Below are positions 4,674 through 62,768 of a stretch of DNA of 64,000 nt, one piece after another. The notes under the pieces are model-generated. The model ran no database searches. It saw only the letters and a list, made by a program, of their open reading frames with translations, and was not told the origin of the DNA. Origin of the DNA: an uncultured Methanoregulaceae archaeon. GTDB taxonomy: Archaea; Halobacteriota; Methanomicrobia; Methanomicrobiales; Methanospirillaceae. The DNA lies in NCBI GenBank assembly GCA_963818425.1, contig CAWFSA010000004.1, positions 188,016 through 252,015 of the forward strand, in the 5' to 3' direction. Position numbers and translations under genes: made by a program. Every line of letters begins with the position of its first letter. Position 1 is the first letter of the stretch.

Positions 4674-6588
4674 TTATTCATCAAGCGTCGAAATGTCACC
4701 GGGGTCCATGCCCATCTCTTTTGCTTTCAGCACCCGCCTCATGATCTTGCCGCTGCGGGTCTTTGGCAGTGTGGCTACAAACTCAATTTCTGACGGCATT
4801 GCAATAGGCCCGAGGGTGATCCGCACATGGTACAGGAGCTCGTTTTTCAGCTTATCGGTTGCCATGTGGCCGACACGGAGGATAACAAACGCCTTGATGA
4901 CGTTTCCTTTCATCGCATCCGGTTTACCGATGACCGCAGCTTCAGCAACAGCCTTGTGCGACACCAGCGCGCTTTCCACCTCAGCAGTGCCGATGTTATG
5001 GCCGGCAACAACGATGAGATCATCAGACCGTCCCAGCACCATGATGTACCCCTCCTTGTTCTTCACGGCAAGATCTCCGACAGCGTACCAGCCGGGTATC
5101 GTATTCCAGTATTTCCGGTACCGCTCGTCATCATTATAGACGGTGCGCAGCATCGATGGCCAGGGTTCACGGATTGCCAGGAAGCCCCCGGTACCGGGCG
5201 CCACGGATTTCCCATTCTTGTCTACCACATCGGCAACAACGCCGGGAATACCCTTGCCCGGCAAAACCCGGGTACATCCGCTCCCCGATCATGGTCGTAA
5301 CCATATGCATACCGGTCTCGGTCTGCCACCAGGTATCAACGATCGGGCACCGGTTCTTTCCTATCACGCGGTAATACCACTCAAACGCTTCCGGGTTCAG
5401 TGGCTCGCCGACCGATCCGAGGATGCGCAGGGTACTGAGGTTATATTTATCCGGCCATTGTTCGCCGACTTTCATGAACATGCGGATCGCGGTCGGGGCG
5501 GTGTAAAGGATCGTGACCCCGAACTCTTCAACCATCTTCCAGTACACACCCGGGTCCGGGTAGTCCGGCGGACTTTCCGTGATGATGATCGTTGCACCCA
5601 GTGCAAGCGGACCATAAACAACGTACGAATGCCCGGTAATCCAGCCGGGGTCTGCAGTGCACCAATAGACGTCGTTGTCCTTGATATCAAACACCATTTT
5701 AGTGGTATAATACGTACCGACCATGTACCCGCCACAGGTGTGGACAATCCCCTTGGGGGCACCGGTGGAACCGCTCGTGTACAGGATAAAAAGCGGGTCT
5801 TCGGCATCCATGATCTCGGGTTCGCAATCCGGTTCTGCGTCCTTAATCATGTCATGGAAATCTACCTCCATTTCCTTATGGATCTCGACCGGCTGGTCGC
5901 GTTCCCTTCGTAAGACAACGATATGTTCCACGCTCGGGGCATTGATGATCGCTTCCTCAATGATATGCTTGAGCGGGATGGACTTGCCGCGCCGGTACGT
6001 GACGTCTGCCGTGATCACAACCTTTGCCCCGGCACCCGTGATGCGGCTGTTAAGTGCTGATGCACCGAAACCGCCGAACACGACACTATGGACTGCTCCA
6101 ATCCGGGCGCACGCGAGCATCGAGATGATCTGCTCCGGGACCATCGGCATATAGATACAGACCCGGTCTCCCTTCTCAACACCCAGTTTTTTCAGGCCGT
6201 TGGCTACCCGCATGACTTCACGCAGGAGCTGACGATAGGTATAGATCCGCTCGTTGTCATCCTCGCCTTTCCCGCTGTGTTCTTCGCCTTTCCAGATCAG
6301 AGCCACTTTATTCCGGCGGGAATTCTGCACATGGCGATCAAGGCAGTTGCAGGTAATGTTCATCTTACCATCAACAAACCAGCGTGCGTACGGGTAATTC
6401 CATTCCCTCACTTTCGCGTATGGCGAGAACCAGTGCAGTTCCTTGGCAATCCGGTCCCAGAACGCATCAGGATTATTCAGGAATTCCTCATACGCCTTCT
6501 GGTAGTTGCCTATCCAGCTGTTCTGCTGGTAGGTGGGATCGGGCGTGTAATACTTTTCGGTAAGTCTGACGTTAAAATTTTCAGCCAT
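4674..6588 (-). CDS. acs: Acetyl-CoA synthetase (AMP-forming), interrupted by one frameshift near 5262-5275
   Basis: The N-terminal 473-aa ORF carries Acs hallmarks (YTSGSTG.PKG, WWQTETG). The C-terminal 196-aa ORF has the Acs C-terminus (…[16 protein letters not shown]…[10 protein letters not shown]). The two frames join at tttgccgggcaaggg. Confidence 0.8.
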
Positions 6589-13251: not shown

Positions 13252-14254
13252 ATGGAACCTGCGGACCCGGAACCGGCGATCATCCGTGTCGAGAACCTTG
13301 AACACCGCTACGGGGATTTCAAAGCGGTCGACAATATCAGTTTTTCCGTGAGAAAAGGGGAGATCTTCTCGTTCCTCGGGCCGAACGGGGCCGGCAAGAG
13401 CACGGCAATCAATATCCTCATCACCCTGCTCTCGCTGCAGAAAGGCAGGGCAATGGTTGCAGGATATGATGTGACCAGGGATCCCCAGAGCGTCCGGGAA
13501 TCGATCGGCATCGTCTTCCAGGACATCACGCTCGACCGGGATATGACGGTCTGGGAGATCCTCGAATTTCACGGCAGGCTCTACAATATGCCGGTAGATG
13601 AGCGGAGGGCCCGGATCGATGAACTCCTGCAAGCTGGTCCAGCTCGATGCGAAACGGGACGAACGCATAAAAAACCTGAGCGGGGGCATGAAGCGCCGTC
13701 TCGAGATCGCCCGCGGGCTGATGACCCGGCCCAAAGTCCTCTTCCTCGATGAACCCACGATCGGGCTCGACCCGCAGACGCGGATGCGGATGTGGGATTA
13801 CATCAAGGGGGTCAACAATGAAGGGACGACCATCTTCCTCACCACCCATTACATGGACGAGGCCGACCATCTCTCCGACCGGATCAGTATCATCGATCAC
13901 GGGAAGATCGTTATTTCCGGCACCTCATGGGAACTCAAGAACACGCTCGGGCAGGACATCATTTATCTTGAGACCAATGACAATGAGACGGCCACTCGTC
14001 TGCTGAAAGACCTGCCGTCGATCCGGGATATCAAAATAAAAACCAGGGGGTTCCTGCTCATGGTCAACGAGGACGGGACCAAACTGCTGCCGGGGATCAT
14101 CGACACGCTCCGGAATGCCGGCATTGAGATCACGACCATCAACTTAAAAAAACCCTCCATGGATGACGTTTTTGTCTTTTACACGGGAAAAGAGCTCCGC
14201 GATGAAGGAGCAGCACCGGCAAAACCGGTGTTCCTGCGGGCGGGAGGGCGGTAA
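13252..14254 (+). CDS. ABC transporter ATP-binding protein (ABC-2 subfamily), interrupted by a frameshift near 13633-13640
   Basis: Walker A GPNGAGKST lies in the first ORF. The signature LSGGMKRR and Walker B LFLDEPT lie in the second. A single extra base falls in ctcctgCaagctg. Confidence 0.7.
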
Positions 14255-14255
14255 C

Positions 14256-15093
14256 ATGGCCTACGGGTTCATGACCATTTACTGGCGGGACATGATCCGT
14301 TTCGTCCGGTTCAAGACGCTGCTCGTCTCCTCGCTCCTCCAGCCGGCGCTCTGGCTCGCCTTCTTCGGCATCGCCATGTCGAGCAACTTCGACCAGCTGA
14401 CCGCCGGGCATGCCAGTACCTGCCGGTGCCCACGTGGTCGGGTACCTCACCTTCATGGGCGCCGGGATCATCGCGATGACGACCCTGTTCACGAGCCTCT
14501 TTGGCGGGATCGTGATCCTGTTCGACAAGAACTGGGGGCTCATGCGGGAGATCCTTGCAAGCCCGATGAACCGGAACCACATCATCTTCGGGATCGGTCT
14601 TTCCGGCGTTACCAAGTCATTCATCCAGGCGATCATCATCATGGGTTTCGGCATCCTGATCGGCACGGCATTCTTTGCCGGGTTTACCCCGCTCCAGACC
14701 GTCATCGGGATTGCCGGGATCCTTGCCTTTGTTGCCATGTTCGCGCTCGGCTTCCTGTTCCTCTCCGCCGCAATCGCTATCTCGATGGAGAGTCCCGAAG
14801 GGCTCCAGGGGGTTATCACGCTCCTGACCATGCCGATCTTCTTTGCCAGCAACGCCCTCTACCCGATCGACACCTTCCCCGAGATCCTGAAGATCATGTC
14901 GGTCTATAACCCGATGACGCTGCTTATCACCGGCATCCGGTACTTTGCGATCGGCCCGGACTTTGTCGCGCTGGGAAAGCATTACGTGTATACGCCGATG
15001 GATATCGCATGGGCATTTGGCGGGCTCGTGATCTTTACCGTGATCATGTTCGCATTTGCTTACTGGCGGTTCAGGAAAGCGGTCGTGACGTGA
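14256..15093 (+). CDS. ABC-2 type transporter permease, interrupted by a frameshift near 14400-14412
   Basis: The N-terminus (MAYGFMTIYWRDMIRF...LWLAFFGIAMSSNFDQL) is in one frame and the 6-TM body in the 14410..15093 frame. The start lies 1 nt after the ATPase stop. Confidence 0.6.
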
Positions 15094-15389: not shown

Positions 15390-16063
15390 ATGGATCTGCC
15401 TTTTTTACTCATCGACATGGTACTGCATTTTGACAAATACCTGCCGGGGATCATCGAAACCTATGGGTTCTGGACCTACGTTATCCTGTTCGTGATCATC
15501 TTCTGCGAGACCGGCCTTGTGGTAGCACCCTACCTTCCCGGAGACTCCCTGCTCTTCGTTGCCGGTGCGCTGGCAGGTGCCGGCCTGCTGAACATCGAGA
15601 TCCTGATCCTCTCGCTGATCGTTGCCGCGGTGCTCGGCGATTCAGCAAACTACTGGATCGGGCATACCACCGGCATGAAAGTCCTTGACTGGAAGTGTAG
15701 TTTTGTCAAAAAGGAGCACCTTGAGCAGACTCATGAATATTTTAAGAAATACGGCGGGTTCACCATCGTCATCGCCCGCTTCGTCCCGTTCATCCGGACG
15801 TTCGCCCCGTTCCTTGCAGGCGTGGGAAAGATGAGTTACCGGTGGTTCCTTCGTACAATATCCTTGGCGGTGCCCTGTGGATCTGTGCGTTCTCCCTTGT
15901 CGGGTACTTCTTCGGAAGCCTCCCCATCATCAAGGAAAATTTCAGCCTGCTCGTGTACGCAATCATCGGGATTTCCCTCCTCGCGGTTGGTTCGGTCGTC
16001 CTGCAGATCATTCGGTCCGCGAATTCCCCGGAGTGCAGGGTGCTCAAGAATCCTCCGGAATAA
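15390..16063 (+). CDS. DedA/SNARE-associated family membrane protein, interrupted by a frameshift near 15845
   Basis: A DedA core (…APYLPGDSLLFVAGALAG…GFTIVIARFVPFIRTFAPFLAGVGKMSYRWFL) continues in the +1 frame with YNILGGALWICAFSLVGYFFG. Confidence 0.65.
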
Positions 16064-17036
16064 TTTTTCTGGAATCTTTCCGGATTTTTTTAAAAAATTT
16101 TTCCCGTATTTTTTCCCGGATTCCCAGGAAACGTTTGCAGTTCTGTGATGCGGGACCCTGCGGCTGATGCGGCAACAACCGGAAAACCGGAACCGGACCT
16201 GCCCATTGCCAAAAACCCGGGACGGGCAGGCGGTCCGCAACCGGGAAAGAGCCAAGCCGGCAAAGAATCCTGCACCGGGCCGGATGATTTGTCGAATGAT
16301 CAAAAAAACCTGAAGATTTCGTTCGAAGACCTGCAGTTTTCTCCTGTCTCAAGTCCGGGGAAAGGGGGCATTCTGCTGCACCGGGTCGGAGGGGTTTGTT
16401 AAAACCCCGTAGAGGCGATGGGAGGTAATGCCGGCCTTCGACTTCGTGAAGCCCGACGGAGCTGAACGATAAGAAGACGAAGTCTTCGACTTCTGATGAC
16501 CTGTCGCACGTCGGTGGATCCTTCTTTTTGATCACCCCCCGGACAGTATCTTTCAGGCAAAGACAGTTGTTCAAATTGGGTGTATTTTGACAAACAGAGT
16601 CTAAAATGACCGAATCCGATCAAGCCATTTTTCAGATCCCCAAAAGATGTACCTGATTCGCAAAAAACGGTACCAGTTATTTTTCAACCTTCCCTTTTTG
16701 ACCCCTGATAGCCCCGGATCTGCCTTTTCCATGCATTCCGGTGATCGTATTTGTTCGCATTTGGATCGAAAAACGGGGAATATGTCCTGATACAGGATGG
16801 CATCGGGCCGGAAGGGGGTTTTGGGATCGGGATTTTCCGACGGGGGAACGTTGACTACTGTCGGAGGAAATTTTAGGCTGATTCCGCGTTACCCGGGACG
16901 GGTCACCGGACAGTCGAAGAACGCTCCCTCATTCTCCTCCTCCTCCGGGTCTGAAGACCAGTCGGACTGTTGTCCATGTGCTGTCCCCCCACTTCGAGCG
17001 AAACATCCACGAAAAACAGAACTGAAACCTTTTGAT

Positions 17037-17321
17037 CTATAACCGGCCATACTTTTTATGAGCACGCTCGATGGTATCCAGGTAATAGATGAAAACGATA
17101 TTTTTTTCAATACGATACAGTGCGGTGTAACTGTGGCTGATATGTAAACGATAAACGGGTTTTTTGCCCCGGCAGGTGAATTTTTCTTTATCGCCACCTT
17201 TCCCGGGATAGGGGTCCGTCTTAAGGAGAGACAGTTTATTCTTTACGATGTGCCGGGTTTTCTCAGGAAGGTTCTCAAGAAATGCCAGGGGCTCATCCTC
17301 AATTTTAGTGATGAATTTCAC
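17037..17321 (-). CDS. RelE/ParE-family type II toxin
   Basis: 94 aa with a RelE/ParE-like pattern (…DPYPGKGG…YRLHISHSYTALYRIEKNIVFIYYLDTIERAHKKY). Its start overlaps the antitoxin stop by 4 nt. Confidence 0.6.
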   Translation of the reverse strand: MKFITKIEDEPLAFLENLPEKTRHIVKNKLSLLKTDPYPGKGGDKEKFTCRGKKPVYRLHISHSYTALYRIEKNIVFIYYLDTIERAHKKYGRL

Positions 17322-17515
17322 TCTTCAAGCTCCACAAAATGGCCGTCCCGCATTTTACGATCGGCATCCTCGAATAACCGGCGGCGCTTCTCCTGAGTTA
17401 CCATATCTGAAAGGACCTGATCAAACGTCTGGCCGGGTTTCCGGAGTTCGTAAAGTTCCTCCCAGGTACTGGGACGAACCGGGATTCTTTTTGTTGAGCA
17501 TTCCTGAACGGACAT
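17318..17515 (-). CDS. Putative antitoxin partner of the RelE-like toxin
   Basis: 65-aa ORF directly upstream of the toxin with translational coupling (ATGA overlap). Small and charged. Confidence 0.45.
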   Translation of the reverse strand: MSVQECSTKRIPVRPSTWEELYELRKPGQTFDQVLSDMVTQEKRRRLFEDADRKMRDGHFVELEE

Positions 17516-17925
17516 AGATACCCTGTTGGTGCTGTAAAGATTTACTTATTTGCAATAGTTCCCTAATTCCTTTTAAAATGTATGCCTTCGAGTGAAACAT
17601 CCACGAGAACAAGGAGTGAAACTGAAAAAACTGGGGGCTGGATTTATAAAAATCTGGCTTCGAGCAAAACATCCACGAGAACAAGGAGTGAAACTCCGTG
17701 ACACAAGACCCGACCACGACAAGACGCTGCTTCAACGGGTGATGCTGCCAAAGAATGAAAGAAAAAAAACTGCTCGGGAGAAAACATGCTAGAGAAATAA
17801 TCGCTCCCCTTGCGACGAGTCCCGGGTTGACGATCCTGACGAATACTAAAACTGCCTTATCCCTGACAGGATGAGGCAGGCCGAAGCCCATGAAGAATTA
17901 TAACGAGGGGTAATGATTTTTTAAA

Positions 17926-18560
17926 AACATCATTTCGCAATCGGGATCCGATTTTGGAACTGCAATCGCGATCACAATCGCGATCGAAAACCTTTCCGGA
18001 AAAATCAGTAACCGGTTTTCATTTCACAATCGGATCCCGATTTTTGCGGTAAAATCGATCTGCGATTTTCATCTGCAAATCGGATCGCGATTGAAAACCG
18101 GTTTTTTGACCGCAAGTACAGACGGAACGCGAAATCGGATCCTGATTTTCATGTGAAAATCGATCAGCGATTTTGATCTCAAAATCGATCTGCGATTTTC
18201 ATTTCATGCTCTGTAGAAAACATTCGAAATTACTTGACGCTCCAGGGGCTACGCCCCGCCGCTGGGGCGCCCCGGTTGCGATAGTGCTGTATTACCTGTT
18301 AAAAAAATGCGGGAAGTTTCAGGACAGGTAATATTGAGGCATCGCATGCGCCATGAGCCCCCAACGGGGGCAGGGCTGGCGTAAGGGGGGTAACCAAATA
18401 TGAAACAGGTTTTCTACAGAGCATCATTTCACAATCGGATCCTGATTTTAAAAACTGCAATCGCGATCATGATCGCGATTAAAAACCAATCCGGATCAAT
18501 CGCAATCCGATTTTAAACCCAAAAACCGGATCCTGGCTCTTCCGGTAAAATCGTTCCATC
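17926..18560. repeat. Field of short palindromic repeats (AAAATCGATCNGCGATTTT and AATCGGATCCNGATTTT units) bracketed by two ~70-bp direct repeats (17926-17995, 18423-18492)
   Basis: At least seven copies of GATC-centred palindromes sit inside a 2.6-kb non-coding stretch. The two ~85% identical 70-bp segments flank MITE copy 1. Confidence 0.5.
18208..18422. mobile_element. MITE copy 1 (orientation A)
   Basis: The 215-bp element has the TIR GCTCTGTAGAAAAC ... GTTTTCTACAGAGC and is flanked by TCATTTCA on both sides. It matches the other four copies. Confidence 0.6.
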
Positions 18561-18688: not shown

Positions 18689-21257
18689 ATGCTCTCACTG
18701 GATGAACTGAAACCCATTACAGGGACGAATGGTTTAACGACCGGACAGGTCGCGGAGTTCCGTAAAAAATACGGCGCCAATGCCATGACCCCCCCGGTCC
18801 GGGAACCGCTCTGGAAACAGTACCTGGAAAAATTCGACGACCCGATCATACGGATCCTGCTCCTTGCGGTGGCCGTCTCGACGGTTGTCTCGATGGTCAA
18901 GGGCAGCGGACTCCTTGACACTATCGGGATCATCATCGCCATCCTCCTTGCGACCGGCATCGCGTTCTTCAACGAGTACCGGAGCAGCAGGGAGTTCGAT
19001 GTGCTGAATGCCCACCGGGACGATGTCGCGATCAAGGTGATCCGCGACGGGCACCCGACATCGGTTCCATCCCGGGACATCGTGGTCGGCGACCTGATCC
19101 TGCTGGAAGCCGGCGACGCCCTGCCCGCGGACGGATGGGTGATTGCGGCCGATGACCTGTTCTCCGATGAATCGGCATTTACCGGTGAGACCGAGCCGGT
19201 AATGAAGGATCTCCTCGACCGCGTGCTGAAAGGGGCATTCATCACCGCAGGCAAAGGTCATATGGTCGCGGCAGCAGTCGGCGACTCAGCCCAGATGGGC
19301 GTAATCGCCGCATCGCTCGGGATCGACCATGCCACCGCAGACCCCGCTCGAGCAGAAACTGGAGTCCCTGGCCCACTCATCAGCCGCTTCGGGTACGCGA
19401 TGGCCGTCCTCATCTGCAGCACGCTGCTTTATCCGGGGGTTCATGATCGGCGAGGTGACGGGGCTCAATATCGATACCGCAAACAATATCCTCCACTATT
19501 TCATGCTCGCGGTCGTGATCGTTGTCGCTGCAGTACCCGAAGGCCTGCCTATGAGCGTTGCGCTCTCGCTCTCGCTTGCCATGCGGAAGATGACGCGGGC
19601 GAACTGCCTTGTCCGGCGCCTGATCGCCTGCGAGACCATCGGCTCAGCCACGACCATCTGCACGGACAAGACCGGCACGCTCACCAAAAACCAGATGGAG
19701 GTGGTGGAGTCACCGGCCGGGAAACCCGAGAACAGTCAGGATCTCCCGCAGAATCCGGCCCAGTGGATTACGCTCAATGCCGCGGTGAACGGGACAGCAC
19801 ATCTTGAGGAGCGGGACGGGAAGATCATCGTCATCGGCAACTCGACCGAGGGAGCGCTGCTCCGCTGGCTCCGGGAATACCACTACGATTACATGCATAT
19901 CCGCGCTGAGACCCGCACCATCAAACAGTACCTCTTCGACGGTAACCGGAAACGGATGTCCACGGTCGTGGAGATGGGCGACAGGTCATGGCTGCTGGTC
20001 AAGGGTGCCCCGGAGATCGTGGCCGGGCTCTGTACAGAGAAACCGGACCTCACCGGGGTCAGCGCCCTGGCCTCGCGGGCAATGCGGACGCTCGCGTTCG
20101 CCCACAAGGAGGTCACGGGGGGCGACGAGCATGAAACGGGACTGACGTGGGATGGTTTCGTCGGCATCCGCGACCACCTCCGGGATAATATTCCTGAGTC
20201 TGTTGCAACCTGCCGGCACGCGGGAATAAAAGTCAGGATGGTCACCGGGGACAACCCGGAGACCGCCCGGGCGATTGCGCAGGAATCAGGCATCATGCAG
20301 GGCGGCACGGTCATCTCCGGTGCGGAATTCCGCGGGCTTCCGAAAGAAGAGCAGACAAAGGTCTCGCGTAATCTCGATGTGATGGCCCGGGCCGAGCCTA
20401 TGGACAAACTCCTGCTTGTCGAGGCGCTCCAGAGAAACGGGGCGGTTGTAGCAGTGACCGGTGACGGGACCAACGATGCGCCGGCGCTCAAGCACGCAGA
20501 CGTTGGCCTCGCCATGGGTATTGCCGGGACGGAGGTAGCCCGCGAGGCAAGCGACATCATCCTGCTCGATGACTCCTTTGCTTCGATCACGAGTGCTGTC
20601 TGGTGGGGCAGGTCACTGTATGAGAACATCCAGAGGTTCATCCTCTTCCAGCTCACCATCAACTTCTGCGCCTGCTTCCTCGTCTTCATTGCACCGCTCT
20701 TAGGGCTCGCGGAACCCTTCACTATCATCCAGATCCTCTGGATCAATATTATCATGGACACGCTTGCGGCATTCGCCCTTTGTTCCGAGGCCCCGCACCG
20801 CGGCCTGATGAACCATAAGCCGGTACCGCAGGATGCAAAGATCGTCACACCGTTCATGTGGCTCTCCATTATAGTGACGGCGACGTTCCTGATCCTTGCC
20901 GGCCTCCTCCAGCTGGCGACCGGATTCCTCGGGGGTTCAACACCGGAAGAGATAAGTACGGTCTTCTTTGCCGGCTTCATTATGGCTGCGGTCTGGAACG
21001 GGATCAACTGCCGGGCGCTCGACGGGAAGATGCCCCCGTTCTTTAAAGGCAATCCGATCTTCTTTATCGTCATGGGCATCGTGGTCGTAGTCCAGATCGC
21101 CATCGTCCAGTATGGTGGTGCCGTATTTGCCACGGTTCCCCTCTCTGCCACGCAGTGGATAACCATTATCGTTGCCTCCGCAGCGGTGCTCGTGGTCGGG
21201 CTTGTCCTGCGGATCTTTTACGGGTTATTCCGCCACCGGCACGGCCGGAGGGCATAG
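18689..21257 (+). CDS. Cation-transporting P-type ATPase (Ca2+-ATPase-like, P2-type), interrupted by at least 2 frameshifts (about 19340-19440)
   Basis: The motifs TGETEPV, PEGLP, DKTGTLT, TGDN and GDGTNDAPAL are all present. The N-terminal 372-aa ORF and the 642-aa ORF overlap in different frames, with a short third-frame segment (LISRFGYAMAVLI) between them. Confidence 0.75.
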
Positions 21258-21393: not shown

Positions 21394-24300
21394 GGCGGGA
21401 GGTCAGGAAATACGGTACCCGAGCTTCCGGACCAGAGCAATCATTTCCAGAACCTGCTCTTCCTGCTTATTCGTGAGTTTCCGGCCTTTCTGGATCAGCC
21501 TGCCCATCCTTACGATCTGCATACGCTGGTCCTGCGTAAGCTCCTTGCAATGGTGCGACCATCTGAGCAGATCAAGCCATTGCGCACGGTTGAATGCAAC
21601 ATCCTTTCCACCAACCAGTGGTGCTGCGTCATCAGTATCCGGGGGGAATCCTCATCGTCTTCGATAGTATCTTCGCGGATATTTTCACGGTTATAATGCA
21701 TATCGGAAATGGAGGGAAGATAGTCTTCAAAAAGACTTTCCTCCTGATCAGCTTGACCGGGCAATAAATCCGGCAGCACATCATGTACCGGTTCGGTTAC
21801 CCGTTCCTGGATGATCGATACCCTGGGAATGCCGGCTGACTTTTCCCGGTCATCTTCATCGTCTTCGAACAGGTCCTCGACACTCTGGATATGCGAAGCC
21901 TCCGGTCCGGATACCTTCACCGGATCGATCGCAACGAGAGAGCGGGGGAGAGGATGGATTGCTTCCGGAATGTTGGGAGCTTTCACAATGAGCGAGCGCT
22001 TTTTTATTATTTCTGCTTCCTTTCTCATCCCGGATGACGGTGCCGGCCCTGGCGGCTGTTGCTTTCCGGCAACGGCCTCAAGCCGTTCCTGATCCGTCAT
22101 GTGATCTTCCCACTCATCGGCAAGGGCAACCCGGGCCTGATCGATCTCGGCAGTCAGGGCGGCTGCAACCTGTTCAGCCTCGATCTTTTCCCGGCTCAGG
22201 ACCGTGACCTGCTCTGCAAGGTTCTGGTTCTGCACCTTTGCGGTTTCATGCATCCTGCGCTCGGCACTCAGATCGGCATGCAGGGTTTTGGTCTCCGCTA
22301 CGAACCGTTCGAGTTCCTGCTCCTGCTGCTGCTGCTGGGACAATGCTTCCCTGAGCTGGTCTTCCGATTCCTGCCGGCGAACGGTCTCCTGTTCAAAGCT
22401 GGTTCTTACCCGTTCCAGCTCATCGGCAAGGGAAACGCGCTGCTGCTTTTCTTTCTCCCGTCCTTCTGAGACACTCTCCAGATCCTGACCGATCAGCCGA
22501 ATCTTCTCCTCAGCGAGATGCAGCTTCTCTTCGACTTCTGTTCTTGCGGAAACTGCAGAGTCGAGCTCTTGTTTCGTCTGCTCAAGCAAGGTCGTGTGCG
22601 AGGTAACGGCAGCCCTGGTATTGTCATGAACCCGGAGGAGCTCCCCCAGTTCCCGGTCACGCTGCAGGATTATCACGTTCATGCGTTCTTCGTTGTCTTT
22701 GTACCGGCTCTTTTCCTGATCCAGCTGGCTTTGCAATTCCTTCAGGGACGCAAAAAGCGATTCTGCCTGTACTTCCGCCTTCTCCTTTTCTGCATATACC
22801 CGTGCAAAATCTTCTTTCTGGGAGGTGCTGTTCCTTGTTACTGATTCAAGGGAGGCGTTTGTCTCCGCAAGAGCACGGGAAACGGACGCAAGCTCCTGCT
22901 CTGCGGACTCCCGGGCTGAACGGACCGTCGCAAGTTCAGTGGTGAGTGTTTTTATTGCCTGTTCTGCTTCTTCAAGGAGGGGACGGGTTGTATTAAACCG
23001 GGCCTGCAGGTCAAGAAGGTCCTTCTGTCTTTCCTTCAAGAGAGGTGTTCGTCTCCGCAAGAGCACGGGAAACGGACGCAAGTTCCTGCTCTGCGGACTC
23101 CCGGGCTGAACGGACCGTCGCAAGTTCAGTGGTGAGTGTTTTTATTACCTGTTCCTTTTCTTCAACGTGAGACTTGGCAGTATTAAGGCGGGCCTCCAGC
23201 TCGAGGTTGTCCTTCTTCTTTACGCTCAGGGCTGTGTTCGTTTCCGCAAGAACGCGGGAAACGGACGCAAGCTCCTGCTCTGTGGATTCCCGGGCTGAAT
23301 TAACCGTCGCGATTTCTTCGCTCAGTGTTTTTATTGCCTGTTCCTTTTCTTCAAGCCGGGACCCGGCTGCATCGAACCGGGCCTGCAGGTCGAGAAGATC
23401 CTTCTGTCTTCCTTCAAGAGAGGTGTTCGTCTCTGCAAGAGTACGGGAAACGGACGCAAGCTCCTGCTCTGATGACTCCCGGGCTGAATTGACCGTCGCG
23501 ATTTCTTCGCTCAGTGTTTTTATTGCCTGTTCCTTTTCTTCAAGCCGGGACCCGGCTGCATCGAACCGGGCCTGCAGGTCGAGAAGATCCTTCTGTCTTC
23601 CTTCAAGAGAGGTGTTCGTTTCCGCAAGAGTACGGGAAACGGACGCTAGCTCCTGCTCTGATGACTCCCGGGCTGAATTGACCGTCGCGATTTCTTCGCT
23701 CAGTGTTTTTATTGCCTGTTCCTTTTCTTCAAGCCGGGACCCGGCTGCATCGAACCGGGCCTGCAGGTCGAGAAGATCCTTCTGTCTTCCTTCAAGAGAG
23801 GTGTTCGTCTCTGCAAGAGTACGGGAAACGGACGCAAGCTCCTGCTCTGATGACTCCCGGGCTGAATTGACCGTCGCGATTTCTTCGCTCAGTGTTTTTA
23901 TTGCCTGTTCCTTTTCTTCAAGCCGGGACCCGGCTGTATCGAACCGGGCCTGCAGGTCGAGAAGATCCTTTTGCCCTGCCTCAAAGGTCACCCGGAAAGA
24001 TGCTTCCGCGTGTTCCTTTTCTGAGGTTACCTTATTCAGGTTCTCTTCGGTATTCTGGAGACGGGAACGTTCCGACTCCAGTTCTTCCTGGAAGCGGGTA
24101 CGCTCTGATTCAGAATCTTCCTTAAGCCGGCTCAAAGCGGCAGCTTGCTCTTTGGCCGTATCTTTCAAGTCGTTGATGATCCCCGTCAGGTCCTGTTCAG
24201 ACTGGGTTTTTGCAAGCGGTACCTGCATTCGAGCTCCTGGAGAACTTCCTGTGCCCGGTTCTTTTCCGCACCAAAATTAATCTTCAGCTGCTCATATTCG

Positions 24301-32917: not shown

Positions 32918-32983
32918 CAGAAATAATCTTTTTTTTAAAAACGGATATGAATCGTCAGATTCACATCAGAATTATTATAAATT

Positions 32984-33198
32984 GCTCTGTAGAAAACCTG
33001 TTTCATGATATATGATCACCCCCCTTGCGCCAGCCCTACCCCCGTTGGGGGCGGGGGCGCATGTGATGCCTCGGCATTACTTATACAAAAACTCTCTGCA
33101 TTTTTTGTAAACGGGTAATACGGCGCTATCATAATGGGGCGCCCCAGCGGCGGGGCGAAGCCCCTGGAGCGTGTAACTCTAAATGATTTCTACAGAGC
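32984..33198. mobile_element. MITE copy 2 (orientation B)
   Basis: 215 bp with TIRs GCTCTGTAGAAAAC / ATTTCTACAGAGC, flanked by TATAAATT on both sides. Confidence 0.6.
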
Positions 33199-33401
33199 GT
33201 TATAAATTGAAAAAGGGATTTCAAATACAAAAAAGTAATTATTTTTACTTTTAATCACGATGAACCCCGCCGCCCCGAGGGGCGCCCCCGCGGCGGATCA
33301 GTGAGGGAATTAGAGAATGCGTGAAACCTGCATGCCCCGCCGTGCCTCGGAGAAACCCTGACAGGCGGGGAGCCCTCAGTATAATCGACATGGTTTAACT
33401 G

Positions 33402-39663: not shown

Positions 39664-39714
39664 TCAGAGGGTATATCCCCCGGTTCAAAAAACCGGGAAT
39701 ACTCAAAAAAAACT

Positions 39715-39944
39715 GCTCTGGAGAAAACCTCTTTTCATAATTATGATAACCCCCCCTTGCGCCAGCCCTGCCCCCATTGGGGGGCTCATGGCGCATAGTG
39801 ATACTTCGGCATTGCCTGTACAGGAAATTTCTCCACGATTGTGTACCGGTAATACGGCACCATCGCAATCAGGGGATGCCACGAGCGTGCGGGGGCGGAG
39901 CCCCCGAGAGTGTCATAGTTGGTATCAAATGATTTCTCCAGAGC
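39715..39944. mobile_element. MITE copy 3 (orientation B, most diverged)
   Basis: 230 bp with TIRs GCTCTGGAGAAAAC / ATTTCTCCAGAGC, flanked by AAAAAAAAC on both sides. Confidence 0.5.
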
Positions 39945-40279
39945 AAAAAAAACAATTCACTGTTTTTATATGCAGGGGGAACGGGCTATCCAGGGAGACG
40001 AGGCGGGGTCCGGATCAGAGGAAAGGATCCATTATGCTGACCCTTTAATCCCTCCCCGTCAGGGTTAACCCGCCGGCATCCCTGCAGCACCGGGCAGTTC
40101 TTCTGAAAACCGGAGAGGAGACGCCGTACGCACTCACGGAGACCAAAAGCACATTTTTACCATGTGCCTGCGGGGCAGAGAAGCAAAAGGAACTGCCGAT
40201 AATAGTATACGTTTTATCATTGCGAGATCAAATAGAGATCAATAGATAACGGGGGATTTTCCCGATCAGGTGATTTTTT

Positions 40280-42060: not shown

Positions 42061-42126
42061 CCTCTGTTACCTCAGTACAAGTGTATGTTATTAAAGAGAA
42101 AACCAAGGTATATTTTATAAAATTCT

Positions 42127-42343
42127 GCTCTGGAGAAATCATTAAGAGTTACACGCGCCAGGGGCTTCGCCCCGCCGCTGGGGCGCCCCAATTATGATGG
42201 CGCTGCATTACCCGTTTACAAAAAACTAAGAGAGTTTTTGTAGAGGTAATACTGAGGCATCACATGCGCCCCCGCCCCCAACGGGGGCAGGGCTGGCGCA
42301 AGGGGGGTAATCATATATCATGAAACAGGTTTTCTAAAGAGCA
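42127..42343. mobile_element. MITE copy 4 (orientation A)
   Basis: 217 bp with TIRs GCTCTGGAGAAATC / GTTTTCTAAAGAGC, flanked by AAAATTC on both sides. Confidence 0.6.
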
Positions 42344-47980: not shown

Positions 47981-48107
47981 TTCCTTATGACGGGGCACTC
48001 AAAAAAAATGTTCGCCCTCTGATGGAAAAAGGGGCTTCATCCACGCAGATAAAAAATGTGAAATGCAGTGAAGAGGTTTCATACCAGAAAAGAACGGCAT
48101 TTTTTTT

Positions 48108-48325
48108 GCTCTGGAGAAAACCAGTTTCATGGTATATGATTACCCCCCTTGCGCCAGCCCAGCCCCCGTTGGGGGAGGGGGCGCATGTGATGCCTCGGTA
48201 TTACCTATACAAAAACTCTCTCGCATTTTTTGTAAACGGGTACTACGGCGCTATCATTATCGGGGCGCCCCCGGCGGCGGGGTGAAGCCACTGGAGCGTG
48301 TAACCCTGAATAATTTCTCCAGAGC
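48108..48325. mobile_element. MITE copy 5 (orientation B)
   Basis: 218 bp with TIRs GCTCTGGAGAAAAC / ATTTCTCCAGAGC, flanked by ATTTTTT(T) on both sides. Confidence 0.6.
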
Positions 48326-48332
48326 AGATTTT

Positions 48333-60208: not shown

Positions 60209-61180
60209 ATGGATGAAATGGGCTTATCACCAGGATCTGTTCAATCCATAATTGATTCAAAAAAAGCAGTTGAGCGATACCAGCATAGATTGGACTATTG
60301 TTATGCATATTTGTCGGAAAACAACTTCCCCGATAAGCATTTTCAACAGCAAATTGAACCTGAATTAGTTTCTATATTGAAAAAAAATGGGAAATCTAAA
60401 AAATGTATTCAGAAAGAAATCCGCGAAACAAATCGGAGGTGGGGTTTTTTAGCCCTAACAAAATCCCAGTTTTTAATTCGTCTAAATCATTTGATACCTG
60501 AGGAATTGGACAGCGCCAAGTGGGTGAATACGTATTGTCATGATGTTCCGTTTGGTTGCGTGACGAAAGATGCTACCGATAAATTGACTCCTGAACAAAT
60601 TCAACGGTGGTCAGATGGAAACCTTCTCATGTATCATAAAAACAGTTCGTACATCAATCTTACTGGTGTATTGTTATCCGAAAATTTTTTTGTAATTGAA
60701 ACGTTATGTAGAACAATATTATTTGGGAGTTGTCTTGAATTCGCACTTAAATCACTAGATGAAAAGACAACCGTTCAACACAAGGAAATTTATCAATCAT
60801 TAAAAAGAATGGGTGATGCAAATAGTGATAAAATTATTTGTAAACTATGTTCTTTTAACAAGCGCTGTAAAAAATGTGCAGATTTTTTAATTTTAGCCCA
60901 AGTTTATGAATTATTCTATCATTTACGGGTAATTAAGGATTATAAGATGGAATTTTGGGATATGGAACTATTCTCCCCGTTATTCAGTCAAAAGAATTTG
61001 GAATACATGTTTAACATCGTAATAAAGGTTCAACAAATTGACACTCGAATTTATAACGGGTATTGGCGATCCCCTTTCCATCTCTATAAGGATAATCAAA
61101 GAATTGATACACTTATTCAAGATTTCGATAGATGGCGTTCTTCGAAAAGTAAAAGAGAGCGAATCGAACCATTGGTGTAA
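60209..61180 (+). CDS. Hypothetical protein in the AT-rich island, probably horizontally acquired
   Basis: 323-aa ORF with strongly AT-biased codon usage, unlike the rest of the window. No domain is recognised. Confidence 0.45.
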   Translation: MDEMGLSPGSVQSIIDSKKAVERYQHRLDYCYAYLSENNFPDKHFQQQIEPELVSILKKNGKSKKCIQKEIRETNRRWGFLALTKSQFLIRLNHLIPEELDSAKWVNTYCHDVPFGCVTKDATDKLTPEQIQRWSDGNLLMYHKNSSYINLTGVLLSENFFVIETLCRTILFGSCLEFALKSLDEKTTVQHKEIYQSLKRMGDANSDKIICKLCSFNKRCKKCADFLILAQVYELFYHLRVIKDYKMEFWDMELFSPLFSQKNLEYMFNIVIKVQQIDTRIYNGYWRSPFHLYKDNQRIDTLIQDFDRWRSSKSKRERIEPLV

Positions 61181-62600: not shown

Positions 62601-62768
62601 TGGGGTTGGTGAGATTTGAACTCACGATCGACGGGTCTCTCCGACATGCATCAGTGCTCCAACGGGTCATCATCTTGTTTTCAGGAGACCCATTGTTCAT
62701 CATCTGCGAGCACAAAGAACGCAAAGACCGCTGGAGCCCGTCGCCATACCGGGCTAGGCCACAACCCC
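62601..62768 (-). tRNA. tRNA-Trp(CCA) with a 94-nt intron after position 37
   Basis: The rc reads GGGGTTG-TG-GCC…GGC-G-ACGGG-CTCCAG[intron]A-CCCGT-CGATC-GTGAG-TTCAAAT-CTCAC-CAACCCC-A. The acceptor, T-arm and anticodon stems all pair. The anticodon is CCA. CCA is not encoded at the 3' end. Confidence 0.75.
62637..62730 (-). ncRNA. Intron-encoded box C/D sRNA guiding 2'-O-methylation of pre-tRNA-Trp positions 34 and 39
   Basis: The intron carries C (AGATGATGA), D' (CTGA), C' (AGATGATGA) and D (CTGA). The guide upstream of D (TTGGAGCA) pairs with GCTCCA of the anticodon loop and places C34 at the 5th position. The guide upstream of D' (GGGTCTC) pairs with GAGACCC across the 3' splice junction and places nt 39 at the 5th position. 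Confidence 0.65.

Follow-up and report, generated by a model that had tools for sequence, protein, structure and literature searches.

Orphan and eroded CRISPR (clustered regularly interspaced short palindromic repeat) arrays are common. In archaea, toxin–antitoxin (TA) genes have been seen in company with CRISPR loci, as in the Sulfolobales, where vapBC TA pairs are interspersed in CRISPR-cas cassettes and have been proposed to aid maintenance of the system (PMC4390879). A large insert in an array is also on record: CRISPR locus F of S. solfataricus holds an 899-bp fragment of a pNOB8-like plasmid between two repeats, and such large inserts in otherwise regular arrays have been called very rare (PMC4390879). 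TA and CRISPR parts are interleaved in other ways in CreTA, which lies inside a cas operon and pairs an RNA toxin with a CRISPR RNA (crRNA)-like antitoxin that partly matches the toxin promoter (PMC10097628), and in CCTA, arranged as hicA-CRISPR-hicB, where the array lies between the toxin and antitoxin genes beside cas13a (PMC13448076). Here we describe a locus in 64,000 nucleotides (nt) of contig CAWFSA010000004.1, from an uncultured Methanoregulaceae archaeon (this whole stretch is called the window throughout). Its central elements are three 37-nt repeats, R1, R2 and R3, with a pair of RelE-type TA genes between R1 and R2 and a spacer between R2 and R3. We consider it probable that the locus is the eroded trailer end of a type I-B array of Methanoregula, in which a relBE-type TA operon with its own promoter occupies the position of a spacer.

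The locus shares with orphan and degenerate arrays a repeat family that is elsewhere associated with cas genes, canonical lengths, point mutations and the lack of cas genes nearby. It differs from them in consisting of one repeat-spacer-repeat unit plus a 557-nt protein-coding operon in a spacer slot, and in a layout that is conserved across a genus. As with the Sulfolobales vapBC pairs, a type II TA pair is physically tied to an archaeal CRISPR locus, and in loci related to the window block MazE/PIN, PIN and Fic/Doc genes stand beside the array remnant. The vapBC pairs, however, lie among cas genes, whereas the window TA pair lies inside the repeat-spacer array, precisely between two repeats. 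S. solfataricus locus F is similar in that hundreds of base pairs are bounded by two repeats, but it concerns a plasmid fragment of a single strain, whereas the window carries an intact, selected operon that is kept across deep divergence (synonymous divergence, dS, up to 0.8). CreTA and CCTA also interleave TA and CRISPR parts, with degenerate repeats adjoining the toxin gene. The window locus belongs to neither: in contrast to CreTA, its toxin is a protein, the window has no cas operon and the spacer does not match the promoter, and in contrast to CCTA, the toxin and antitoxin genes are contiguous between repeats, which is the inverse topology, and the toxin is RelE-like rather than HicA. 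A literature search of limited reach turned up neither a TA operon described in spacer position nor any description of this Methanoregula locus, which is a weak indication of novelty.

CRISPR repeats of a cas-associated family

All three repeats are read on the + strand. R1 (16992-17028) is a degenerate CRISPR repeat that departs from the family consensus, CTTCGAGCGAAACATCCACGAGAACAAGGATTGAAAC, at five positions (32/37 identical), and R2 (17586-17622; C8T, T31G) and R3 (17658-17694; G9A, T31G) depart from it at two positions each (35/37). R2 and R3 enclose a spacer of 35 nt (17623-17657, + strand; TGAAAAAACTGGGGGCTGGATTTATAAAAATCTGG) and form one regular unit with a period of 72 nt, and the R1-R2 interval is 594 nt, leaving a gap of 557 nt. 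An original prediction, made from the letters of the sequence, had located the repeats, the spacer and the TA genes, and all of its coordinates are correct. It had given R2 and R3 as identical at 36 of 37 positions; the count is 35/37, with mismatches at repeat positions 8 and 9, and R1 is identical to each of them at 31/37. The ending of the repeats, which had been taken as typical, is a mutated form, as T31G is common to R2 and R3 and lies inside the 8-nt handle at the repeat 3′ end, where it changes the usual ATTGAAAC to AGTGAAAC.

Three repeats are the minimum for most array callers. In a chance control, 100 shuffles gave 0 matches, and the expected number of 37-mers at least 32/37 identical to the consensus is 7.6e-10 for the window, so that R1-R3 are not a product of chance. 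A further copy with up to 12 mismatches was not found in the 64 kb. Rfam CRISPR-DR7 (RF01320) matches R2 with 32.8 bits (E 5e-4) and R3 with 28.6 bits (E 7e-3), both on the + strand, which is the correct one, and both under the gathering score of 37. As RNA, the repeat is essentially without structure, which is usual for Cas6b-type repeats.

The nature of the repeats is settled by their relatives. A search of one genome per prokaryotic species with the part of the repeat common to R1-R3 retrieved metagenome-assembled genomes of Methanoregula, whose loci we designate by L numbers. The array of L015 comprises 47 consensus repeats with a period of 71-76 nt and unique spacers, and upstream of it are cas6b, cas1, cas2, cas4 and a leader of ~105 nt. 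L006 and L013, which are adjacent blocks of one contig, together hold an array of ~59 consensus repeats, and L006 has cas5, cas3, cas6b and cas1 beside it. The cas gene set of L015 and L006 is a type I-B-like layout. The 37-mers of the window are therefore genuine CRISPR repeats of a cas-associated family, and the assignment made by the original prediction is borne out by the arrays of L015 and L006. In L011 (1693-1861) we also observed a hybrid array, in which units of another, 30-nt repeat, GTTTGAAGCGGACTAAATTAGGATTGAAAT, are followed by a single 37-nt repeat; the latter is the terminal unit and stands at normal spacing.

The arrays of L015 and L006 also refute the alternative that the 37-mers are attachment-site (att) or target-site duplications at the ends of an integrated mobile element with the TA genes as its cargo; the att-type form of this alternative had been raised by the original prediction against itself. 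Direct repeats do bracket a small accessory operon here, and an element resembling a miniature inverted-repeat transposable element (MITE) lies 500 nt away. The 37-mer is, however, the unit of arrays of 47 to ~59 repeats with a 71-78-nt period and unique spacers, and these arrays adjoin cas1/2/4/6b/3/5. The third copy stands at CRISPR spacing, an integrase family was found in 0/20 of the larger open reading frames (ORFs) screened, a set that takes in the larger ORFs up to 12 kb from the locus, and the only transfer RNA (tRNA) gene detected in the window, at 62601-62768, is ~45 kb off. Because the 37-mer is a multi-copy unit of cas-linked arrays elsewhere, we give this alternative practically no chance of being right.

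Array polarity can be read from the cas and leader side of L015, from the degenerate last repeat of the same array and from the + strand call of Rfam. By this polarity, R2-R3 are the terminal, trailer-side units and R1 is the end of the main leader-side array, which reverses the earlier view of R1 as the terminal repeat split off from the rest. R1 is the last surviving leader-side repeat, and R3 is the last recognisable trailer-side repeat.

Neither cas genes nor a leader accompany these repeats in the window. A tblastn search with type I-B and I-C Cas proteins of the related loci returned nothing at E<0.01 in the 64 kb, and Pfam found no cas family in 20 large ORFs of the window, a screen in which small ORFs and type III genes were not exhaustively covered. 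The absence of cas genes, first reported for at least 45 kb on one side, is thereby upheld for the whole window. Upstream of R1 and R2 there is no likeness to the leader of L015 or L006. A comparison of the spacer with viruses had also been proposed, and was made with two spacer 20-mers, neither of which has an exact match in viral contigs, a search that protospacers with mismatches would escape; a 25-mer of the repeat has no exact match in viral contigs either. Within the window, the TA promoter has no match to the spacer, whose best match anywhere is 22/35. This score equals the result for shuffled spacers, and self-targeting in the manner of CreA was rejected for this reason. A 13-nt match of the spacer 5′ end in the acs gene (6182-6194) was judged to be chance, with ~0.04 expected by a rough estimate. 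The first 13 nt of the spacer reappear just upstream of the lone repeat of L012, which hints that the spacer is old.

These results also bear on whether the mini-array is functional. R2, the spacer and R3, perhaps together with a giant R1-TA-R2 transcript, might be transcribed and cut by a Cas6b encoded elsewhere, and the product would be a crRNA with a part in immunity or a regulator that resembles crRNA, as CreA and Cas-regulating RNAs do. Such a role would suit the canonical spacing and spacer length, the matching type I-B systems encoded by related genomes, and the state of R2 and R3, whose 2/37 changes are far fewer than the neutral divergence of the locus predicts, R3 being a perfect consensus in three related loci. 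We nevertheless regard it as unlikely, given that no cas genes were found in 64 kb, that T31G falls within the 8-nt handle of both repeats, that no leader like those of L015 and L006 precedes R1 or R2, and that the spacer is not kept between lineages and has neither a viral match nor an above-chance match in the window, the TA promoter included. As part of an eroded array, R2-spacer-R3 probably gives no immunity now, because the window has no cas genes, both repeats have the mutated handle and a target of the spacer was not detected. Processing of the unit may still take place if the genome encodes a fitting Cas6b/Cascade outside the window.

The toxin–antitoxin operon between R1 and R2

The gap between R1 and R2 is filled by two genes on the − strand. 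A putative antitoxin gene (17318-17515; 65 amino acids) comes first, and its TGA stop codon overlaps the GTG start codon of a RelE-family toxin gene (17037-17321; 94 amino acids) in a GTGA at 17318-17321. The toxin gene is oriented antisense to the direction of array transcription, and its stop codon lies 8 nt from the end of R1. On the other flank, the segment 17516-17585 (− strand) is the predicted TA promoter/operator, with an A/T-rich box, AAATAAGTAAAT (− strand), ~24-35 nt upstream of the ATG. Columns 17533-17562 are almost invariant in our alignment of the block (A1), the promoter-region segment also being conserved in other loci, and the ~25 nt just before R2 vary among loci. A promoter function of 17516-17585 is suggested by this pattern.

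Several comparisons point to a RelE toxin. An AlphaFold2 model of the toxin (predicted local distance difference test, pLDDT, 90.6; predicted template modelling score, pTM, 0.81) has as its best Foldseek match the archaeal RelE 1wmi_A (E 3e-6, TM 0.74/0.79), with further matches to RelE, YoeB, YafQ and HigB structures. A 15-member toxin profile likewise matched 1wmi_A, the RelE of Pyrococcus horikoshii, over the full length in a search of PDB (E 0.0033). The NCBIfam model TIGR02385 (RelE_StbE) scores 17.4 bits on the toxin, below its cutoff of 27.9, and Pfam assigns no family to the toxin or to its 65-amino-acid partner. The toxin belongs to a small family, of which 35 clusters were found; IMG labels some of them RelE. 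The model thus predicts a RelE fold for the toxin, and together with the GTGA overlap and the 1wmi match this agrees with the translationally coupled RelE-type pair first described. For the 65-amino-acid protein, no significant family was found in PADLOC, Pfam or NCBIfam, and a profile search of PDB gave only noise. Every locus carries it beside the toxin, its amino-acid identity being 91-97%, and its gene order, overlap and strict co-conservation argue for a role as antitoxin.

The closest described module is aRelE-aRelB of P. horikoshii (PDB 1wmi), with which the window operon shares an antitoxin-first order, overlapping codons and a toxin of ~90 amino acids with, as modelled, a RelE fold. 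Unlike aRelE, which it matches at only ~22% identity, the window toxin falls below the TIGR02385 cutoff and has no Pfam match, and unlike RelB, the 65-amino-acid protein has no detectable similarity to RelB or to any family. The pair would act as a standard type II module, in which RelE is a ribosome-dependent mRNA endonuclease restrained by the upstream antitoxin, and the antitoxin probably also represses the conserved promoter.

In comparisons with four related loci, the toxin gives a ratio of nonsynonymous to synonymous divergence (dN/dS) of 0.10-0.21 and the putative antitoxin one of 0.03-0.07, at a dS of 0.29-0.84. These values show that both genes are kept by purifying selection, which is strong for the putative antitoxin, and that the compared lineages are old. 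Paralogous TA pairs occur in L026, in L027 and as a second pair in L001 (47-52% identity), and in L009 (36%); none of them is flanked by repeats, and the association with repeats is therefore specific to the orthologous block.

A bolder reading makes the TA pair a captured 'giant spacer' that would work in functional coupling with the array, as an embedded addiction module that stabilises CRISPR memory. Leader-driven transcription of precursor crRNA would then run antisense through relBE, and Cas6b cuts in R1 and R2 would release a handle-tagged antisense RNA of ~0.6 kb. The TA pair would penalise repeat-repeat deletions that remove the trailer, and the module could move between arrays via the repeats. 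We consider such coupling improbable.

The same block in related Methanoregula loci

Loci from genomes, metagenomes and assemblies carry the 557-nt block again, with 83-91% nucleotide identity, and the repeat-TA-repeat unit is present in 17 distinct loci, the window included. The block begins at the same place in 17/17 of them, at offset 0 after the repeat 3′ end GATTGAAAC, and the 9 nt before the block have 0-3 mismatches to GATTGAAAC even where the remaining repeat is unrecognisable. On the other side of the block stands a repeat or its relic, and the relics of most lineages share the derived substitutions CAAATGCAACAT. The borders between repeat, TA operon and repeat are identical across deeply diverged lineages, and at least one lineage retains a regular leader-side array. 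This is L022, where a run of regular repeats, at least nine in number and 71-75 nt in period, reaches the toxin stop codon and, in the opposite direction, continues to the contig end, and three degenerate repeats follow beyond the TA operon. This layout places the operon within the array, a few units short of the trailer and in antisense orientation to array transcription, and the position of the L022 repeats on the R1 side again contradicts R1 as the terminal repeat.

Other lineages represent further states of the array. L004 and L019-L023 have the R1-TA-R2-spacer-R3 pattern of the window, with 594/73 spacing, and also carry an extra partial repeat upstream and a degenerate repeat downstream; the equivalent of R3 is a perfect consensus in L019, L020 and L023. 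In others, for example L028-L030 (HGW-Methanomicrobiales-1), the repeats are almost erased, and in L028-L030 a distance of 2.6 kb separates the TA operon from a type I-C-like cas operon. In a neighbour-joining tree of the block, L001 branches deepest and the window next, with all remaining loci in one clade. A conversion of R2 back toward the consensus, which we considered, is unneeded, as the tree places the window outside the clade with extra R2 substitutions. Two further features were noted beside the block: in L021 (1568-2107), a second gap of ~540 nt with a 107-amino-acid ORF lies between R1 and a near-consensus repeat, and in L001 (5480-6460), ~130 nt of the purB 5′ region are duplicated and flank the second, paralogous TA pair. 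They hint at further cassette-like insertions.

Since the unit is common to 17 loci at a synonymous divergence from the window of 0.3-0.8, the insertion is ancient. The original prediction of a decayed array, interrupted by insertion of an addiction module, therefore stands in part: the locus is an orphan in the window and is eroding, but no insertion took place in this genome, the arrangement being inherited throughout the genus and, in the window, far advanced in erosion. The comparison with related genomes that it proposed yielded the shared block, and an empty-site/filled-site pair for the block was not found.

The gene contexts of the block raise the possibility that it is a mobile cassette, which would move between arrays of the same repeat, inside one genome or once transferred horizontally, by homologous recombination in the CRISPR repeats on its flanks, rather than being simply inherited in place. 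Most loci lie in a variable region that runs from HcyBio/Fer4/ApbE-type genes to Trm56/ATP-grasp/TFIIE-alpha/HD genes and also contains MazE-PIN and PIN genes. L001 lies instead at the purB site, where L015 has a cas-linked array without TA genes, and has a Fic/Doc gene adjoining the array remnant. The block thus occupies at least two different array sites (Trm56/ATP-grasp/TFIIE-alpha in most loci and purB in L001), at least three repeat sub-variants flank it, the trailer-side spacers are unrelated between lineages and the gene neighbours in the window match those of no other locus, all of which speaks for a cassette. Against movement, the right-hand repeat shares the derived CAAATGCAACAT in most lineages and has thus travelled with the block, the differing contexts can be explained by rearrangement in a variable, TA-rich, MITE-bearing region, and no pair of empty and filled sites was found. 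Mobility concerns the spread of the block and is compatible with an eroded array as the identity of the locus; we consider it possible, though rather doubtful.

As an account of the eroded array, we propose that the arrangement arose once, in the ancestor of many Methanoregula lineages, of which some descendants keep a regular leader-side array. In a single ancient event, the operon would have come into a spacer slot, either by insertion into a spacer or by spacer-like integration, and the flanks that it now shows are the 8 nt between R1 and the stop codon and the ~25 variable nt before R2. The lineage of the window would later have lost the leader-side array and the cas genes, so that R1, the TA operon and R2-spacer-R3 remain. 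Loss of the operon would free the stable toxin, and the operon and the repeats that abut it may for this reason resist deletion by recombination between repeats. By this putative stabilising effect, the operon would have outlasted the array because its loss would be toxic, and the adjoining repeats would have been preserved incidentally.

A number of points weigh against this account. R2 and R3 have only 2/37 changes each despite a synonymous divergence of 0.3-0.8, and R3 is unchanged from the consensus in the three loci named above; the changes are fewer than neutral decay predicts, so the trailer repeats may be constrained or homogenised. Homogenisation may be due to a cognate array or cas system elsewhere, in which case the word relic may understate the activity of the locus. 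The trailer-side spacers differ between lineages, which can reflect differential loss from a longer ancestral trailer or exchange of array segments. The orphan status of the mini-array applies to these 64 kb only. In addition, the putative antitoxin lacks a recognisable family, and the toxicity of the toxin, its neutralisation and the stabilising effect of the pair are predictions from sequence.

Surroundings and significance of the locus

In the window, the neighbours of the locus are genes for an ABC transporter, a DedA/VTT protein and a P-type ATPase. The only sequence that these surroundings share with L012 is a non-coding stretch of ~400 nt at 16496-16905 (strand unassigned), ~79% identical to a segment upstream of the L012 array remnant. 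Its six frames score alike in tblastx, and it does not look protein-coding for this reason; an old leader and an RNA gene are candidates for what it is. A gene ending in ...VVDEQLISAGDR, which follows the array in L004, L009 and L012, is not detectable in the window.

The region between R3 and the P-type ATPase gene, a gap of ~1 kb, is rich in repeated sequence. An element of ~215 nt occurs five times in the 64 kb with 76-80% identity (18207-18423, 32983-33213, 39714-39945, 42126-42343 and 48107-48326), one copy following the mini-array downstream at a distance of 500 nt. It looks like a MITE in its terminal inverted repeats (GCTCTGKAGAAA...TTTTCTMCAGAGC), its core rich in GC and its flanks rich in A/T; it has no Rfam match and is absent from the related loci that were fetched. 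Around the copy in this gap, at 17917-18520, there are six palindromic motifs of the AATCGGATCCCGATT type, in tandem and inverted, compared with 0.4 expected by chance.

Frameshifts apparently divide four genes of the window into ORFs that overlap: an acetyl-CoA synthetase, as read from the ORF translations (4674-6588), an ABC-2 permease (14163-15093), the DedA/VTT gene (15390-16148) and the P-type cation ATPase (18689-21257). The pattern points to one of two causes, an assembly prone to indels or several pseudogenes surrounding the locus. Farther away, six tandem units of 189 nt (90% matches) lie at 22845-23970 within a long, coiled-coil-looking ORF on the − strand, for which Pfam gives no family. 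An ORF of 323 amino acids at 60209-61180 (+), whose translation looks compositionally atypical and has no Pfam or PADLOC family, is possibly foreign. The tRNA gene at 62601-62768 (−) has an intron containing a C/D-box small RNA (Rfam sR3, 61.8 bits), an arrangement typical of euryarchaea that fits the archaeal origin of the window.

Taken by itself, the window offers a modest finding, a remnant, whose interest would rise only if there is functional coupling between array transcription and the TA operon. Its wider interest comes from the related loci. That TA modules stabilise CRISPR-Cas loci is a long-standing proposal, and the known cases lie among cas genes or are RNA-based, as in CreTA; here, a protein TA operon stands in a spacer slot within the array, where a genus of methanogens has retained it across deep divergence. 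Array callers and models of spacer turnover assume uniform spacers, so that a locus of this kind is split or missed. Across the lineages, the array around the TA operon ranges from intact to almost erased, and the series amounts to a natural experiment on two questions: whether an embedded addiction module protects neighbouring repeats from deletion, and how orphan mini-arrays originate.

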